A stretch of DNA of 64,000 nt from Podarcis gaigeae (taxonomy: Eukaryota), in NCBI GenBank assembly GCA_964106915.2, contig OZ066917.1. The stretch is one strand, 5' to 3'. This document shows positions 3,890 to 48,594 of this stretch, piece by piece. The notes under the pieces are model-generated. The model had not been told where the DNA came from. It was given only the letters and a program-made list of their open reading frames with translations, and did no database searches. The translations under genes were made by a program, and so were the position numbers. The first letter of the stretch is position 1. The number at the start of each line of letters is the position of its first letter.

Positions 3890-5231
3890 GGAGATGATGT
3901 ACAGTAGTCTGGAAAAGAAGCTTAGTCTGCATTTTTGCACTGCTAAATCCAACACCTGTTAGCTCACCTCAATTCTCTAAACACTGATTAAACCCCAGTA
4001 ATCTAGGGGAACACTGGGCACTCACACATCCATAACAATATCATTTATAGAAAGTAGCATAGGTGAAATATGCATGCTAAAGTTAAATTGTCTCTGGGGA
4101 GCACTGTTTGAGTGAATATGCCGACACTCATTTTGAAGGCAAAGGAACTGTTCTACGCTCAAATGTCAAGGAATGTGTTAATAATGTGCATCACTTCAAG
4201 TTATCATTTCAAGTGTTAAGTACATTTTATCCCTTTGTGAGATATTAATTCATCGTCGTGCTAACGTCCTGTACAAATTTAAACAACTTGGAAACATCTG
4301 CAGTTACATCTTGCAAATTATTAGGCTTATTTCTCCACACCTACAGAGTGCCTGTCTGCAGGCCCAGAAATGTTTACATGGTAATTACTTTATAATCGCA
4401 CATACTCGTATGAAATTGACCACAGTAGTAGGGCAATTAGAAATATGTTTTCCTAGGATTTTATTTTTCATTAAATTAAAATGGATATGCTTTACATTGC
4501 AGCCTTCTATTCTGGCTTGTTTTAGTAGAACTGCATTTCCCTTTGTTTTGCCAAAATCACCAAATGGTTTTACCAATTCTTCACAGAATTATGTGGCACA
4601 AACCAGAGCAGGGAACCTTAGGCCAGGAGGTAAAATGCAGCCCTCCTTGGGACCACACCTCTTTCCAAGTCCCACCCCTCCTTGTCCTTGCTTCACATCC
4701 TCCGTATGGATTTTTGCCTGACTGGAATGCCTCCTTAAACTCTGATAATAACTCTAGCTTGGCCGAATGGAAGATAGAGAGGTGTGTTTGAGTGAATGTA
4801 GAAGCTTGGGGGTTCCAGCTGGCAACCTGGGTTTAAGTAGCAGAGTGCCTGCTCCCCAAGCCAGGGCCTAGACATAACGTAAGATCCCAAAAAGGGGGAG
4901 GAGGTGTCCTCTCTAAATTAAATATCCCAAACAATGACAGGCTCAGCACCAACCCTACCTACTGCAGCAACCAATCCTGAAGCATAGACTGGAGATTTTC
5001 ACAATATATACATTGTTGCTTTCAAGAAGTCAGCCATGCCTTGCTGAAAAAAGTCATGGTGCCCATTTGTGATGGCAGGGTGATGAAGAATTAAGCCGCC
5101 ATGCAATGAAGAGGAACAATGCTTTGTTCACCTTGTGATGTGCACTGTCCACTTTTGCAGGCTCTGCTGTGTCCCACCAAACACATCACTGCAACACAGT
5201 TGACCACCCAAGGGTCATGCCAGGATAAGCC

Positions 5232-5372
5232 CAGGGCTTTTTTTCAGGGGAAACTCACAGGAACTCAGTTGTGGCACTTCTCAGGTGGGTGCCATTGCCA
5301 TTCTATGACAATGAGGGAGGTGTTCATGGTTAGTTTCATTACCTCTTTTTCCAGAAAAAAACAACAACACTG
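5232..5372. mobile_element. hAT MITE
   Basis: cagggctttttttc ... acaacactg termini; perfect 8-bp TSD gataagcc (5224-5231 / 5373-5380). Same family as 46478 and 54233, in opposite orientation. Confidence 0.85.
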
Positions 5373-5766
5373 GATAAGCCTGTGGTGAAGTGGACAGATC
5401 TCTCTTGACTGCCAGCTCCAGGACCCAAGTCACTCCCCCACAGCTGTGCTATGAGGAGATCCAGGGTACTGCAGCACTTGATCTGCTCTTCCATTATGGA
5501 CTGCATCTTGTGCCATTTCATGCCATGTTTTCCTAACCAGAAGATCTGGAATGGCAGGGTCAAGAAAGAGATGGAAGCTCCACAATGTAGACCTTGAATG
5601 ATGGTGTGCCCAAGAGATGGTGCCATACCTGCAGATCCTCCTGGTTTCTTTTATCTGGAAAATGCAATCAAGGGCACATCTGCTGTCTGAATGTAAGCCT
5701 TAATGGCAGCCAATCGGTTTCAAGATTTAGATGAGATAGTGTGAAAGGAGGCTCATTGGTTTAAAG

Positions 5767-5904
5767 CAGCAGTTCTCAACCTGTGGGTCCCCAGATGTTG
5801 TTGGACTACAACTCCCATCATCCCTGAGCTCTGGCCTTGCTGGCTAGGGGTGATGGGAGTTGTAGTTCAACAACATCTGGGGCCCCACAGGTTGAGAAAG
5901 GCTG
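5767..5904. mobile_element. hAT (Charlie-like) palindromic MITE
   Basis: Long TIRs cagcagttctcaacctgtggg / cccacaggttgagaaaggctg; TSD gtttaaag / gtttaagg. Confidence 0.85.
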
Positions 5905-6590
5905 GTTTAAGGGATACCAATAAACTGTTAAAGGTTGGCAAGCACAATGTCTTCTCTATAGAATGTGTTTCCTGTAGAATTTTGTTTCCACACCTCCTGA
6001 AGTGGAAGGTGGGGAGACTTGCTGGTGGGGACATTTTAAAAAAGCCTCAAGAGCATATAGCAGAACATTTCAAAGTGTCTTCCTTTTTAAAAGGAAAGGG
6101 TCGAAGCAAAAAAGAAAAAGGAAAGGAAATCCCAAATGAGTACTATATGTCACAGTTGGCTGGGCTTTGTTTATTTGTTTTAATTCCATTTTCATTGAAC
6201 AAGGGACTTTTATAACACATCTCCAATACAATGTTAATTAGAAAGGGACTGCTCTTGATGCCATACTCTGCTTTGTTTATCAGAGGCAAATATGAGAAGC
6301 ATGACATCTGTCACTCTTGTGTCTTCTGTGCTTTGCTCCCTGGATTTGTAGCAGCAGAAAAGTACAGGTCACAACTTGGAGAATATGACTTTTGAAAAGC
6401 AATTCAAATGTAATCCAGAAATAAAAAAAAATAGCACTATGCTATATTCTGATGGTACAATTTGAGGCTATATGAAACCCCACTGAGATATTTTTCTTGT
6501 TGTTGTTTTAACTACTTTTGTTTCCCTTGAAATGTCTTGGGTGCTTTGCCCAAGAAGGAACCAAAAAAAGATTCTTTCAGAATTTGATGG

Positions 6591-6828
6591 TAAAGGTAAA
6601 AAGGTAAAGGACTCCTGGACAGTTAAGTCTAGTCAAAGGCGACTATGGGGCGTGGTGCTCATCTCGCTTTTCAGGTCGAGGGAGCCGGCATTTGTCCACA
6701 GACAGCTTTCCAAGTCATGTGGCCAGCATGACTAAATTTCTACTGGTGCATGGAGAACCATTACAGAAGCTAGAGCACATGGAAACACTGTTTACCTTCC
6801 TACCACAGTGGTACCTATTTATCTACTT
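6591..6828 (-). mobile_element. Sauria SINE, older subfamily, 5'-truncated
   Basis: (aaaggt)n tail on the left, diverged body with gtacctatttatctactt; TSD atttgatgg (6582-6590 / 6835-6843). Confidence 0.85.
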
Positions 6829-6959
6829 CCAATGATTTGATGGCCACTGTGTAACTAGCTGGATTTCCTTGGGTTTGTTGTGTGACAGTGGAGGATATGG
6901 AAAAATAGGGCTGGGGTGATGGGAAATAGGGTTCAGGTGAAACTGCAGGATGTTGGATT

Positions 6960-7135
6960 CTACCACATCAGACCATTGGTCCATCTACCTCAGTATTGTC
7001 TACACTGACTGGCAGCGTCTCTTCAGGATTTCAGGCAGGTGTCTTTCTCATTCCTACCTGGAGATGCTGGGGACTGAACTTGGATCCTTCTGCATGCAGC
7101 ACAGAAGATCTAACACAGAACTATGGCCCTTCCCC
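6960..7135 (-). mobile_element. Squam3-like tRNA-derived SINE with CR1-like tail
   Basis: Minus strand reads gggaagggccatag...tgcatgcagaagg..aagttcagtcccc...gccagtcagtgtagacaatactgag.tagatggaccaatggtctga. Confidence 0.75.
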
Positions 7136-8123
7136 TAGTTTTGAATATCAATGCATTGAGATCTGAGATCTATAGGTATAGGGCGGTATACATATTTAAT
7201 AATAATAGCGCAACCTGTGGCTCAAATTTAGCTCACCTTAACAACACCTGACATCACACTACTCAAGGGTGGGCAATCCTGCTACTTCTGAAGTAAGCCT
7301 TTTGTTTTCTCACATCTTTAACAACTAGGAAAGTAGTAATTAACAGGAAAAATCATATTGTTTTGGAACAGAAATATCACAATTTGCCTTCTTTCAGCAG
7401 TTGATTTGCTGTCCTTCCAGAGAGTATAAAACTATATAGGGCTGATAATGCAGGGTATTGTTGATTGATTTGCCCAGAAGGCTTTGGAGGAGAGTAAAGT
7501 TGGAGGAGGAGAATATCATTGAGCACACAATGTCCCAATTATTTTGCACCTCCAAAACAGTCTGACAGAAAAAAGCAGAGGGAACTTCACATTTCTCGCT
7601 CACATTCAAAATGCAGAATGGTTGGGCAGAAATCCCTGTCATGCTCAGGAAGCTTCTTACAATAGGAGAAAGGATGGCATTTGACAATGACAATCAGAAC
7701 AGCACACAGCTGCAGTTGTCCTTTCACAGTCGTCTGAACCATTTATAAAGAGAGCAATAAATATTGCAATACCTTGACAATTATTCTGCAAGAGATTGCC
7801 AAAAAGGCAGGGCTAATGTTAATTCCAAGTTTTGAGGTAGTTGTGAATTGTAGTTTGGGTAGGTTGTGGACAGTTATCAGAAAGAGAGCAGCCATTAGGT
7901 TTGGGGTGTATCTCTGCAGCCTTGCCCCCATTTCCCTGAAGCAGATGTTTATTGTGGTTGGTAGAAGCTATTCTGAAAGAGCATCCTTCAATCATTTTTG
8001 AAGAAATGAGGGCCGCAGTCACACATTACATTTAAGGCACTATGATACCACTTTGAACAGTCATGGCTTCCCTCAAAGAATTCTGAGAGGTGTAGTTTGT
8101 TAAGGGTGCTGAGAGGGTGCACT

Positions 8124-8707
8124 GTCATCATTGAAGTTGAAAATAGTAGGCTAAGTAGCAAGAAAGGTATAAACCTGCCAAGTGTTGCAATAGTTCACCC
8201 TGCTGTTTCTGAGGACATCCAGGATCTGAAATTTGGTGTGGAGTAGGATATAAGCATGGTGTTTGCTTCTTTTATCCAAAAGGCAGACGATATTCATGCT
8301 CTCAGGAAGGTGCTGGGAGAAAAGGGAAAGCACATCAAGATCACTTTCAAGATAGAAGACCACAAAGGTGTAGGTAGGTTTGTTGAGACCATAGATAGTC
8401 GTAGTTGTAGGTAGGTTTGATGATACCATTTTGGCATCATGGTAGCTTGTGGTGGTCTTGGTATTGAGATTCCTGCTGGAAAAGTCTTCCTTGCCCCCAA
8501 AATGATAATTGGTTGATGGAAAGGGTCTGGCAAGCCAATCACCTTTGCTACTCAGATGTTGGAGAGCGTGATTATGAAACCACGGCCAACATATGCAGAG
8601 GTGAGTGATGTAGCAAATGCTGCCCTGCATGGAGCTGATTGTTCTACCTCTCCAGAGAAACCACCAAAGGAGGCCACCCTCTGGAGTCTGTCCACATGCA
8701 GCATCTT
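8124..8707 (+). pseudogene. PKM: Pyruvate kinase M retrocopy fragment (exons 6-8, spliced), disabled
   Basis: Degenerate translation follows PK: EVEN..L.SKKGINLP...PAVSEDIQDLKFGVE*DISMVFASFI...RKVLGEKGKHIKI..KIE.H.GV...GIMVA.G.LGIEIPAGKVFLAPKMIIG*...[36 protein letters not shown]...[10 protein letters not shown]. No introns at junctions 8377/8378 or 8555/8556. Stops at 8244 and 8514 plus frameshifts. GEKGK and PLE..MQHL favour PKM over PKLR. Confidence 0.93.
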
Positions 8708-8820
8708 GTGAGTTATAACCATTTGATGTTAAGTGACAGTACCTGTGTACCTAGAAATATTTGCACAGCTCATGCTCTCCTACTTAACTTTCTATCTTCT
8801 CAAATACCCTCTAGATCTGG

Positions 8821-9046
8821 TTACAGATAGGTAGCCGTGTTGGTCTGCCATAGTCAAAACAAAAAAAAAATTCTTCCAGTAGCACCTTAAAGACCAACTA
8901 AGTTAGTTCTTGGTATGAGCTTTCGTGTGCATGCACACTTCTTCAGATACAGATACAGATTCAGTGTGCATGCACACGAAAGCTCATACCAAGAACTAAC
9001 TTAGTTGGTCTTTACGGTGCTACTGGAAGGAATTTTTTTGTTTTTG
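8821..9046 (-). mobile_element. Penelope-like element pseudo-LTR fragment with inverted 5' segment
   Basis: Arms of about 80 bp (about 8857-8939 vs 8964-9046) are inverted. TSD cctctagatctgg (8808-8820) / cctctagatatgg (9047-9059). Contains a hammerhead motif. Same family at 35222 and 48405. Confidence 0.82.
8913..8950 (-). ncRNA. Minimal type I hammerhead ribozyme motif
   Basis: Minus strand: GUAU-CUGAAGA-A-GUGUGC-AU-GCACAC-GAAA-GC-UC-AUAC. This gives stem I (GUAU/AUAC), the CUGANGA box, stem II, GAAA, a palindromic AGCU stem III and a CUC cleavage triplet. Confidence 0.75.
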
Positions 9047-10309
9047 CCTCTAGATATGGCTTAATGTTTTATACATGGCATGTGGCTGCCTTCTTACTAT
9101 GGCTTGCATATATGCCATAAGTCTCTCAAGCTGCCATAGACTTTTCCCCCATTAGCAGTGAAAACAAAGTGCACTGTCTACAAGTATAAAACATGGGTTT
9201 ATGCAAAGTGAGTGTGGAGCAAATTCTGAACTTTAGGGACTAGTGGTTTTGACAGCCTTATGTGGGTTCCTTCCTACTGTAGTATCTGAATTGTCCAGCT
9301 TAGAAAATTTTTATTTTGAGAACTTCAGATATCCTTGGAATTCCAATTACTGAATTGCATTAATTGTTTTGATGAATTTGTTGTTGTTTGCTTTGTTTAT
9401 ATGCTATAGTGTTTGATATTACAGTGATTGCAGTGCATGCTGTTTTTTATTACTACTGTGGTTTTTGAGAGAAGCTTTGAGCTCAACATTTGTTCTTGGG
9501 AAAGCAGAATACAAATATTAAATGAAATCAAATCCTTTCCCCCCTCACTGAGCTATAATTCCCAGAGTTCTCTGGGAAGAGGGATTGATTGTGAAACCAC
9601 TCTGGGAATTGTAGCTCTGTGCAGGGAATAAAGGTCTTCAGCTCCTAGACATCTTTGGGGAAAACCATGACTGTTTAAAGTGGTATCATTGTGCTTTAAA
9701 TGTGTATGTGGCCCATATGTGTAGGTAAAAGGGGTGTTGCATAAGCTTTGTGAGCAGCAAGCAATTGCTTGTTAATTACTTGAAAATGCCTGATCAGGCC
9801 AGTACATGAAGCTGTATGCTCATTCAGTGTTCACCATCTATGGAAACCTGCTGACTGGCATATTGTCAAGTCTACAAATGTTAGTGGGATGGATGATAAT
9901 TATTATGGTTTTTACTAAGGGTTGTTATGCTACCCCCAAAATATGGGTTTGCCCTGAAGAGCCAACCTTAAGATGCTTGTTTAAATCGCAAGCAAACGTC
10001 ACAAGAGGGGACTATTGTTACTTGAAGGAGGCAGGGCAGAGCCACACAACAGAAAAAGGCAGACGCACACACGCAGCCAGTAGCTAGGTAAAAGCAGAAT
10101 GTGGAGAGCAACAGCTGGAGAGAAGGTCCTTGGGAAACAAAGCAATAAAAGGGAGCAGGGGAGCTTGAGACACAGTCAAAAGGGAGTGTAAGTGAAGCTG
10201 AACATTTCCAGAGAGAATCTCGGATAGCTAGAAAGCAGGCAGAGGCAAGAGGCAAAGGAGTAGGCAAACAAAGACGCTGAAGGAAGAAACAGAGATAAGA
10301 GAGTGTGTG

Positions 10310-35221: not shown

Positions 35222-35410
35222 CAAAATAAAAGAATTCCTTCCAGTAGCACCTTAAAGACCAACTTAGTTAGTTCTTGGTATGAGCTTTCGTGTGCATGCA
35301 CACGAAAGCTCATACCAAGAACTAACTTAGTTGGTCTTTAAGGTGCTACTGGAAGGAATTCTTTTATTTTGTTTTGACTATGGCAGACCAACACGGCTAC
35401 CTATCTGTAA
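35222..35410 (+). mobile_element. Penelope-like pseudo-LTR fragment forming a 150-bp palindrome
   Basis: 35222-35296 is the reverse complement of 35297-35371 (1 mismatch); perfect 13-bp TSD ataatacttatat (35209-35221 / 35411-35423). Confidence 0.88.
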
Positions 35411-35827: not shown

Positions 35828-36051
35828 GAATACCAAATTGATATTTTTTTTGCTCAGACATGGACTGACAGCCGCCTTCGTTTTAACAGCACCATGAAAA
35901 GAAGTCTCACCCTGAACAGCAATATGGTCGGGTTAATATGGATCCCAGATACTATCTTCAGGAATTCTAAAACTGCAGAAGCTCATTGGATTACTACACC
36001 TAATCAGCTCCTGAGAATATGGAATGATGGGAAGATCCTGTATACTCTAAG
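35828..36051 (+). CDS. GABRG3: GABA-A receptor gamma-3 subunit, internal coding exon (exon 4 equivalent, extracellular domain)
   Basis: ttgcag acceptor and AG/gtagga donor. Translates [74 protein letters not shown](R). The motifs [20 protein letters not shown] and NQLL/GKIL match gamma-3 rather than gamma-1 or gamma-2. Length 224 bp. Confidence 0.96.
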
Positions 36052-36092
36052 GTAGGAAGTTAATGTTTGTCCCTTTCACGTCAGTTAAACTT

Positions 36093-46766: not shown

Positions 46767-48404
46767 ATATAGAGATTAGAACAGCAGATCTAAACTTAGT
46801 TTGACAAATCTCTCCTGCAAGTTAAAAGACACACATTTTCAACATTTTAAAAAGTTTGCATTGGCTAAGACAGTGGAGGGTTTTTCTTTATGTCGTTGTT
46901 CCAAATTACTTCAAAATCTCTTTTAAGTCTTCTTTTTTTGTGTCTGTGCCCCAAGAGATACATTGAAGTAAAAGTTATTAGCTTGCTCCCATCAGCTTAG
47001 AAACCTGAGGCTTAACTTGGGAATTTGCACTAAGGGATTGTATTGATTGAAACCAACAAACAAAGCAGTTGTTTCCATCAAAATTGCAGCCAGACAACCT
47101 CCTTCAGTGGCCAGGTCAGATTTCTTAAGCTGAGGAGGATAAGCCTTAGATGGTGCTCATACCAGATATTTACAAGAGATGTGCACAGCCCTAAAGTCCC
47201 AGTGATAATTCTCCCTCTCTATTTTTAGTGACTGTTCAGTGACCACCTCTGTTCATTTCCACACCAATAGAAAATGGAATAATATACAATTCATAGTATA
47301 ATACTTTCTTAATATTCAGTGAGAGAATTAGATGCTGAATCTAGCATTCAGCTGGTCTTTAGATGCAAAAATAAGACCAAAATCTCTCCCCTCTCCCCTA
47401 TCAGAAGCAGCCAATGACTGGTAATAGTCCTGGGAGCTGTCCGATGTGCTGAACTAGCTTTTTTTACTGTGTTTATATCCTGGCTAATAGTGGCAATCTT
47501 AATGTTTATGGATGAGCCACATAAATGCAAATTCTGCTATCAGGTACTGAATATCCTGAGACTTCTGTTTTATATAATTGTTTATTTTTAGGGGGAAAGT
47601 GCTTTCTAGACTATTATTATTATTATTAATATTATTATCGTTCATTTCATTTCTATACAGCTTTATATTTTTAAGTAAAAAAATCACAAAGTGGTTTACA
47701 AGACATGAAAACATCAAACAAACCAGAATAAACAGTACCAAAGGTAGTCAAAGATAAAGCATGCCTTCAAAGCAACATAATTAACAGGAAGCTAAAATAT
47801 TACCTTAAGATGTTCAGAATAACACATTGCAAAGGAAATCAATTGCAGAATGCACTTTTAATGCACAAAAGTTAACCAAAAAAAAATTATCTTAAACATT
47901 TCAAAAGAAAACATTACTAAAGGAAGACGAATGTAAAATGCAGTTTTAAAACAGCATAATTAAGAAGATAATAAAATAATATGATATGGGGGGGGGGCTA
48001 AGAAAACAAACCAGTTCCTCCCATGCATCAAGAAATGAACTTAGAGTTTTGCAATGTGTAGAACCAAACAGTGAAAGTGTACTAGAAGGCATGTGAGTGC
48101 CATCTTGGTAGTCAAGATAATTGTTAGTTGCTGCAATAATAAGCTCATATATATATTTATATGCTTTGAAGCTTTGAAGCCCTCGTTTTGGTTTAGTTAG
48201 TTGGGAGAGGAGAGGCTTCTCATGCTGGCTGTCAACTATTCCCTGGTCTGAGAGAAAGATGAGAGTTGGGAAGGGGCCTCTAAGCCAGGGGTGAGTTAAT
48301 TGGGCAATTGATGCCAGCTTATACAGCTTGCTTTGTGTATAAGTAATGCTTAACATATTCGCACCTCACGGACAAGTCATAATTACTACTTACTGCTTCA
48401 GCAT

Positions 48405-48516
48405 GCACACGAAAGCTCATACCAATAACAAACTTAGTTGGTCTCTAAGGTGCTACTGGAAGGAATTTTTTCATTTTGTTTTGACTACGGCAAACCAACA
48501 CAGTTACCTACCTGTA
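48405..48516 (+). mobile_element. Penelope-like pseudo-LTR fragment, 5'-truncated
   Basis: Same sequence as 35297-35410; perfect 20-bp direct repeat actacttactgcttcagcat (48385-48404 / 48517-48536). Confidence 0.87.
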
Positions 48517-48594
48517 ACTACTTACTGCTTCAGCATCTATCCTGAGCCTGTAAAGGCAGCAGCACTCTGCTGCTGTGTTGTAAGTTTGTACCAT

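Follow-up and report, generated by a model that had tools for sequence, protein, structure and literature searches.

Minimal hammerhead ribozymes in the repeats of Penelope-like retroelements, and 5' inverted arms in these elements, have already been published (PMC4209133, PMC8557442). As set out in PMC4209133, an extra nucleotide separating positions 9 and 10.1, a G10.1-C11.1 pair and a palindromic 15.2-16.2 are criteria for the minimal class in metazoans, whose monomers are inactive and whose dimers are weakly active; according to the review PMC6765202, dimer cleavage is likely but slow. For an anole element, PMC11167929 describes in vitro reverse transcription that begins internally at two sites, with uncut RNA as the main substrate and a hammerhead that cleaves only with protein present. 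The account in PMC3846280 favors self-priming on an antisense template. A CX2-5CxxC linker between reverse transcriptase and endonuclease is described in PMC8557442 as common to the Neptune and Nematis clades, and the Penelope-like clades listed for the vertebrates surveyed in bioRxiv 10.64898/2026.07.22.740005 are Neptune and Poseidon.

The window analyzed here is a 64,000-nucleotide stretch of Podarcis gaigeae DNA, and it holds a new instance of this known kind, a Penelope-like hammerhead stub. With a probability of about 0.9, we take the focal insert to be a Neptune-type Penelope-like hammerhead in a 226-bp head-to-head stub within a GABA-receptor gamma intron; folding predictions put it out of action there, and it is probably an inert passenger. 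The features are as follows, with the evidence for each in parentheses.

8821..9046, no strand: whole insertion, 226 bp, head-to-head Penelope-like stub (arm comparison, family alignment)
8808..8820, plus: target-site duplication, left copy, 13 bp, 12/13 identical (sequence)
9047..9059, plus: target-site duplication, right copy (sequence)
8821..8951, minus: main arm; it begins 5 nt upstream of the core, spans hammerhead and T-run and reaches the 3' end common to the family (family copies)
8821..8856, minus: one-sided 36-bp tail, in which the element's ORF begins (its first 31 nt, with the ATG at 8851-8849; tandem copy L096, arm limits)
8913..8950, minus: hammerhead motif, minimal type I, with C3 at 8946 and a predicted cut at 8917^8916, next to C17 at 8917 (sequence)
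8952..8962, minus: junction filler, 11 nt, with one extra copy of the main arm's 5'-end 6-mer (sequence)
8963..9046, plus: inverted, 5'-truncated mirror arm that begins right after CUGAAGA, has no catalytic core, ends in the T-run and has no tail
35828..36055, plus: host GABA-A receptor gamma-type exon, approximate limits (Pfam PF02931, E 8e-17; best PDB match gamma-2)

On the minus strand, positions 8950 to 8913 read GUAU CUGAAGA A GUGUGC AU GCACAC GAAA GC UC^AUAC. The full set of hammerhead core nucleotides is intact, including the CUGANGA and GAAA boxes and the NUH triplet, and the motif has one extra A between positions 9 and 10.1, the G10.1-C11.1 pair and a palindromic 15.2-16.2, which is G-C. 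Stem I has 4 bp, stem II is in practice 5 bp with a CAUG loop, its whole 14 nt forming a perfect palindrome, and stem III consists of AGCU only. The original prediction had given these minus-strand letters with a complete core, had taken the AGCU palindrome as the whole of stem III and had placed the cut after CUC between 8917 and 8916. The sequence bears out the first two points, and C17 indexes to 8917, in agreement with the predicted cut.

A pattern for the hammerhead core has 16,546 matches in the genome, compared with 158 for a reversed control. Of two candidates in the 64-kb window, only the focal core has a stem II of more than 3 pairs. Because of these two results, we do not regard the motif as a product of chance. 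A search with hammerhead models had been proposed alongside the original prediction; here Rfam gave no match at gathering score in the window, and none of the 29 matches at E<=10 around the locus was to a hammerhead model. The sub-threshold Rfam matches are mostly miRNA models, which score any long hairpin, and we do not count them as evidence for a miRNA. The isolated 38-mer folds no better than its shuffles (z -0.44). At the level of its sequence, 8913-8950 is confirmed as a real hammerhead motif.

The inverted arm, which went unseen in the original prediction, forms an 83-nt repeat (8857-8939 with 8963-9045) of 94% complementarity. The mirror arm stops in the T-run, and therefore the last 36 bp, the tail, are one-sided. 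Reiterations like the 6-mer in the focal filler are present at the junctions of other family copies. At C1:3,150,798-3,150,837 and at other junctions, the 5'-most 6-13 nt of the leader are reiterated, which suggests repeated re-priming at the 5' end of the RNA. The focal copy is young, being 95-99% identical to the best-matching family copies. The best matches as a group show 95-100% identity, too little variation for covariation in the stems to be informative.

We scored 40 of 1,155 candidate loci for relatives of the insertion, and the best 30 of these (29 distinct sites, the focal one included) have a common 3' end. Longer copies extend upstream into a single ORF with reverse transcriptase (PF00078, E 1e-9) and GIY-YIG (PF01541, E 1e-5) domains, and between the two lies a CX4CxxC linker at residue 619 of the protein P0002; four long copies are about 98.5% identical to one another. 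In L096, a natural tandem copy, the order is ORF end, TATA-like box, hammerhead, T-run, ATG and long ORF, and the focal tail is the beginning of this long ORF. The hammerhead thus sits in the pseudo-LTR of a Penelope-like element, as the long and tandem copies show, and these copies together with the features of the motif uphold the original assignment to the minimal type I hammerheads of Penelope-like pseudo-LTRs. A single ORF with reverse transcriptase and C-terminal GIY-YIG, which defines the endonuclease-bearing (EN+) elements, is found in the longer family copies and not in the stub. Pseudo-LTR tandems, an inverted 5' copy, a one-sided tail and a target-site duplication are all present across the family and the focal insertion. 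The longer copies thus have the features of endonuclease-bearing Penelope-like elements, as judged from their domains. The linker motif, rather than a tree, points to a Neptune-type clade, and we prefer Neptune to Nematis because bioRxiv 10.64898/2026.07.22.740005 gives Neptune and Poseidon for vertebrates.

Several other members of the family differ in form. Two loci, L003 (C1:85.325 Mb) and L007 (C21:67.023 Mb), are retrozyme-like arrays in which three units, of 133 and 182 nt respectively, follow one another head-to-tail, each with a full core; every unit begins again from the same position, a little upstream of the core. The window itself contains a second family stub at 35223-35410, a nearly perfect palindrome whose turning point is exactly the stem II palindrome, with no CUGANGA on either strand and a target-site duplication of about 12-13 bp. 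A third stub, on the plus strand at 48401-48518, is more diverged (88-91% identity), is truncated within stem II and has an unusually long target-site duplication of about 21 bp. The copies at C1:2,595,165 and C1:2,610,520 have the same core but share another upstream sequence, possibly that of a second subfamily. The flank of L083 (C8:82.80 Mb) carries a 602-residue open frame, which resembles the end of an LTR-retrotransposon polyprotein.

The gamma-type exon lies on the plus strand, and two upstream exons of the host gene lie at C8:34.903 and 34.928 Mb, with the motif at C8:35.039 Mb. The motif is therefore intronic, in an intron of about 137 kb, and antisense to the gene. Two more receptor genes, one on each strand, are found upstream of the host gene, and they fit what we take to be the gene order GABRB3-GABRA5-GABRG3. 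The original prediction had placed the motif antisense to GABRG3: its antisense position relative to a GABA-A gamma-type gene stands on the strand of the exon, and we infer the name gamma-3 only from synteny. The link to GABRG3 looks incidental, because 254 kb of the locus contain three full cores, two antisense and one sense, and the genome contains about 16,500. The host exon encodes one residue more than the aligned gamma-2, near the exon start. At about 8046-8708 on the plus strand of the window is an intronless pyruvate kinase pseudogene fragment with stops, recognized by four PF00224 pieces, which ends about 110 bp from the insertion.

Could the focal copy fold and cut? In a minus-strand transcript, the mirror arm is made before the hammerhead, and by prediction its pairing takes in stem II, GAAA and AGCU as well as the cut site, in a hairpin of about -150 kcal/mol. 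By thermodynamic prediction, adopting the hammerhead fold costs 43.8 kcal/mol with the arm and 1.4 without it, and 27.8 kcal/mol at the moment when the 3' end of the motif just emerges. The predicted probability of stem II in the insertion's own minus-strand transcript is 3e-16, and thus an accessible hammerhead fold is not expected there. CUGANGA is absent from the plus strand of the insertion, the one that corresponds to the host pre-mRNA. The focal copy has no tandem partner, and one must go about 31 kb, to the opposite strand, to reach another full core. Because of the cost of escaping the arm, the coreless plus strand, the distance of some 31 kb to the nearest other core, the published inactivity of monomers and the protein dependence of the anole hammerhead, the focal motif is most likely inactive at this site. 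The description of the motif as potentially active at this locus is therefore not supported, since the 83-bp inverted arm is predicted to lock it and the nearest other core is so far off. A minus-strand transcript that begins at 8962-8951 would escape the arm; the stub has no upstream TATA-like box.

Burial of this kind is common in the family. In a sample of 100 arms (defined below), 65 have a full core, and of these 33 carry a mirror arm on their upstream side, 28 should by prediction be buried (stem II probability <0.01), and two have a same-strand partner within 1 kb. In the same intron as the focal copy, L077:8157-8243 (C8:35,008,160, plus strand) has a full core on the host-sense strand with no mirror arm, although it is without the first base of stem I and without a tail. 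If either of the two copies affects the pre-mRNA, this core is the stronger candidate.

We compared four RNA runs with the same species label to L096, sampling 6-12% of each. Each run gave 507-988 matching reads, on both strands, and 85-90% of these continue into unlike sequence, as expected if scattered stubs are read through. Depth over the start of the L096 ORF is about 10 or less. Across the four runs, no pile-up of read starts or ends was found at the cut site on L096, in libraries of a kind that shows cleavage ends poorly, and none was found at the putative transcription start in bulk and single-cell reads.

To describe how such stubs begin, we started from 15,088 exact matches to the 19-mer just downstream of the cut site and examined the first 100; these all come from the first 5.3 Mb of contig C1, and both arms of one insertion were counted. 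Relative to C3, 42 of the 100 arms start at -12..-2, 30 of them at -6..-4. A further 27 run at least 20 nt further upstream, 14 start in or beside the stem II palindrome (+5..+13), and only two start exactly at the cut site. Junctions in the hotspot spread over -6..-2 with main peaks at -6 and -4, and on L096 position -6 is 30 nt behind the TATA-like box. Arm starts upstream of the core, and rarely at the cut site, fit reverse transcription of an uncleaved leader RNA. At -4, a G precedes 8 of 13 junctions (p 0.03, post hoc), partly from the arm's own end, and we do not rely on a cap-derived G. A spliced-leader idea was rejected, as the copies have no constant upstream exon and the reads sampled from the four RNA runs show no skipping joint.

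Starts at the cut site were also counted by hand. Matches without C17 gave 52 junctions in the first 100 of 155, compared with 23 in the first 100 of 112 at a comparison site four nucleotides downstream and 39 of 72 at one nine nucleotides downstream. These hand counts correspond to totals of about 80, about 26 and 39 junctions among 15,088 arms, an excess at the cut site of about 2-3 times, and after allowing for the pattern's filters, cut-site junctions make up about 1% of arms. The excess is weak and ambiguous because about 13 of the 52 junctions join through the 4-nt stem I microhomology and three through the AGCU palindrome. A small share of copies may nevertheless come from cut RNA.

Family membership, the target-site duplication, the inverted arm, the one-sided tail and copy number are direct observations, and the mechanism behind them would run as follows. 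Judging from the DNA junctions, the element's transcript would start 4-6 nt upstream of the core, next to stem I of the hammerhead and 30 nt behind the TATA-like box. Reverse transcription would start internally, about 125 nt into the RNA at the end of the tail, and run off the 5' end. A second, short cDNA, begun at the T-run, would then be joined head-to-head to the first, giving the mirror arm, and most of the RNA copied would not have been cut by the ribozyme. Arms end at two points, the tail end and the T-run, which agree with the pair of internal start sites, separated by a tail, that are described in PMC11167929.

We also weighed several other readings of the locus. The core nucleotides are intact, and the motif might cut an antisense RNA from the host locus, whether by itself, in trans with further copies or aided by protein; without the arm its fold is within 1.4 kcal/mol of the ensemble, but the 83-bp arm is transcribed first and carries a predicted penalty of 28-44 kcal/mol. 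A related hammerhead, that of the anole element, does cut in the presence of its protein (PMC11167929), whereas monomers are inactive as described in PMC4209133 and the focal copy has no tandem partner. Likewise, the family sequence is found in RNA reads of both strands, mostly as read-through, yet the read ends on the family copy do not pile up at the cut site, in libraries poor for showing this. We consider such activity extremely unlikely. It is also very unlikely that the 83-bp hairpin acts in the host pre-mRNA as double-stranded RNA, as an editing substrate or a source of small RNAs, with the ribozyme irrelevant. The plus strand does fold alike (-153.8 kcal/mol) and a mirror arm accompanies about half of the full-core arms (33/65), but the copy is young and lies deep in a 137-kb intron, and the scores it receives from miRNA precursor models, all below gathering, come from any long inverted repeat.

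Three further readings concern the origin of the stub. The 226-bp hairpin could itself be spreading as one unit, in the manner of a MITE-like or retrozyme-like non-autonomous element, as its own target-site duplication, its terminal inverted arms and the great abundance of short hairpin copies would allow. Arm lengths and junctions vary by locus, however, and none of the other compared loci repeats the focal junction, which fits independent formation of the hairpins; retrozymes are moreover described as tandem repeats (bioRxiv 10.64898/2026.07.22.740005), and the focal copy is a head-to-head monomer. We give this reading a very slim chance. An unlikely but more serious rival is that the 5'-end hotspot marks a splice acceptor instead of the start of transcription, with the short copies made from spliced RNA; in the Drosophila virilis Penelope, an intron 75 bp long (PMC2377424) ends at the 5' end of helix I (PMC4209133). 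Long copies of the present family do have a pyrimidine tract and an AG ending at -6, but splicing predicts one common upstream exon, and the letters before the junction vary between copies; the junctions also spread over -6..-2, the sampled RNA reads show no skipping joint, and the TATA-like box lies 30 nt upstream. Finally, the family's hammerhead, at the extreme 5' end of the RNA, might serve mainly as a dimerization signal and not as a cutter, its stem II palindrome pairing leaders and bringing two templates to a dimeric reverse transcriptase, with head-to-head stubs as the outcome. In fold predictions, whose nearest-neighbor energies leave out tertiary contacts and protein, two copies of the motif pair through the stem II palindrome at -30.6 kcal/mol compared with -11.1 for the classical double hammerhead, which is disfavored by 21.5 kcal/mol in the natural tandem. 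This proposal is speculative and unlikely, but if true, thousands of stubs would form a genome-wide record of the start site and both reverse transcription start points.

We thus return to the inert, head-to-head Neptune-type stub as our reading of the focal insertion. For the locus itself this has little consequence, as many thousands of such copies exist and this one should, by prediction, be folded out of use. The junction census, on the other hand, bears on the function of the Penelope hammerhead, and starts that fall just upstream of the motif and rarely at the cut site agree with the in vitro uncut-template result of PMC11167929. With its youth and the near-intact long copies in one genome, the family is also a convenient system for studying the origin of head-to-head insertions.

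Among described systems, the focal motif most resembles the minimal hammerheads of metazoan Penelope-like pseudo-LTRs as presented in PMC4209133, with the same short stem I, extra 9/10.1 nucleotide, G10.1-C11.1 pair, palindromic 15.2-16.2 and no real stem III. Those motifs, too, occur as thousands of single copies tied to truncated elements, in reptiles among others (turtle, snakes), and in opposite-strand pairs. In contrast to them, the focal stem II is a perfect 14-nt palindrome and a coreless mirror arm covers the motif. The roughly 16,500 pattern matches here exceed the 4,000-9,000 given for coelacanth and Xenopus in PMC4209133, where the descriptors differ. The EN+ Neptune elements of PMC8557442 and PMC3846280 share with this family a single ORF with reverse transcriptase, Cys linker and GIY-YIG, heavy 5' truncation, partial tandems, an inverted 5' copy, a one-sided 30-40 bp tail, a target-site duplication and a TATA-like box in the repeat; compared with them, the focal insertion is an extreme short form whose ORF is limited to 31 nt. 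The PAc (Poseidon) element of Anolis carolinensis, as described in PMC11167929, is alike in its hammerhead near the repeat-ORF junction, in two 3' end points a tail apart and in little sign of cut RNA as template, but it falls in the Penelope/Poseidon clade and has an ORF that begins at stem II, whereas the long ORF here begins about 95 nt downstream of the core. The non-LTR retrozymes of bioRxiv 10.64898/2026.07.22.740005 are likewise non-coding, derived from Penelope repeats and equipped with a type I hammerhead, and the head-to-tail arrays L003 and L007 resemble them. As defined there, however, a retrozyme has two or more head-to-tail units in a row that carry a full hammerhead, and the focal copy has instead a single core and a head-to-head arm.
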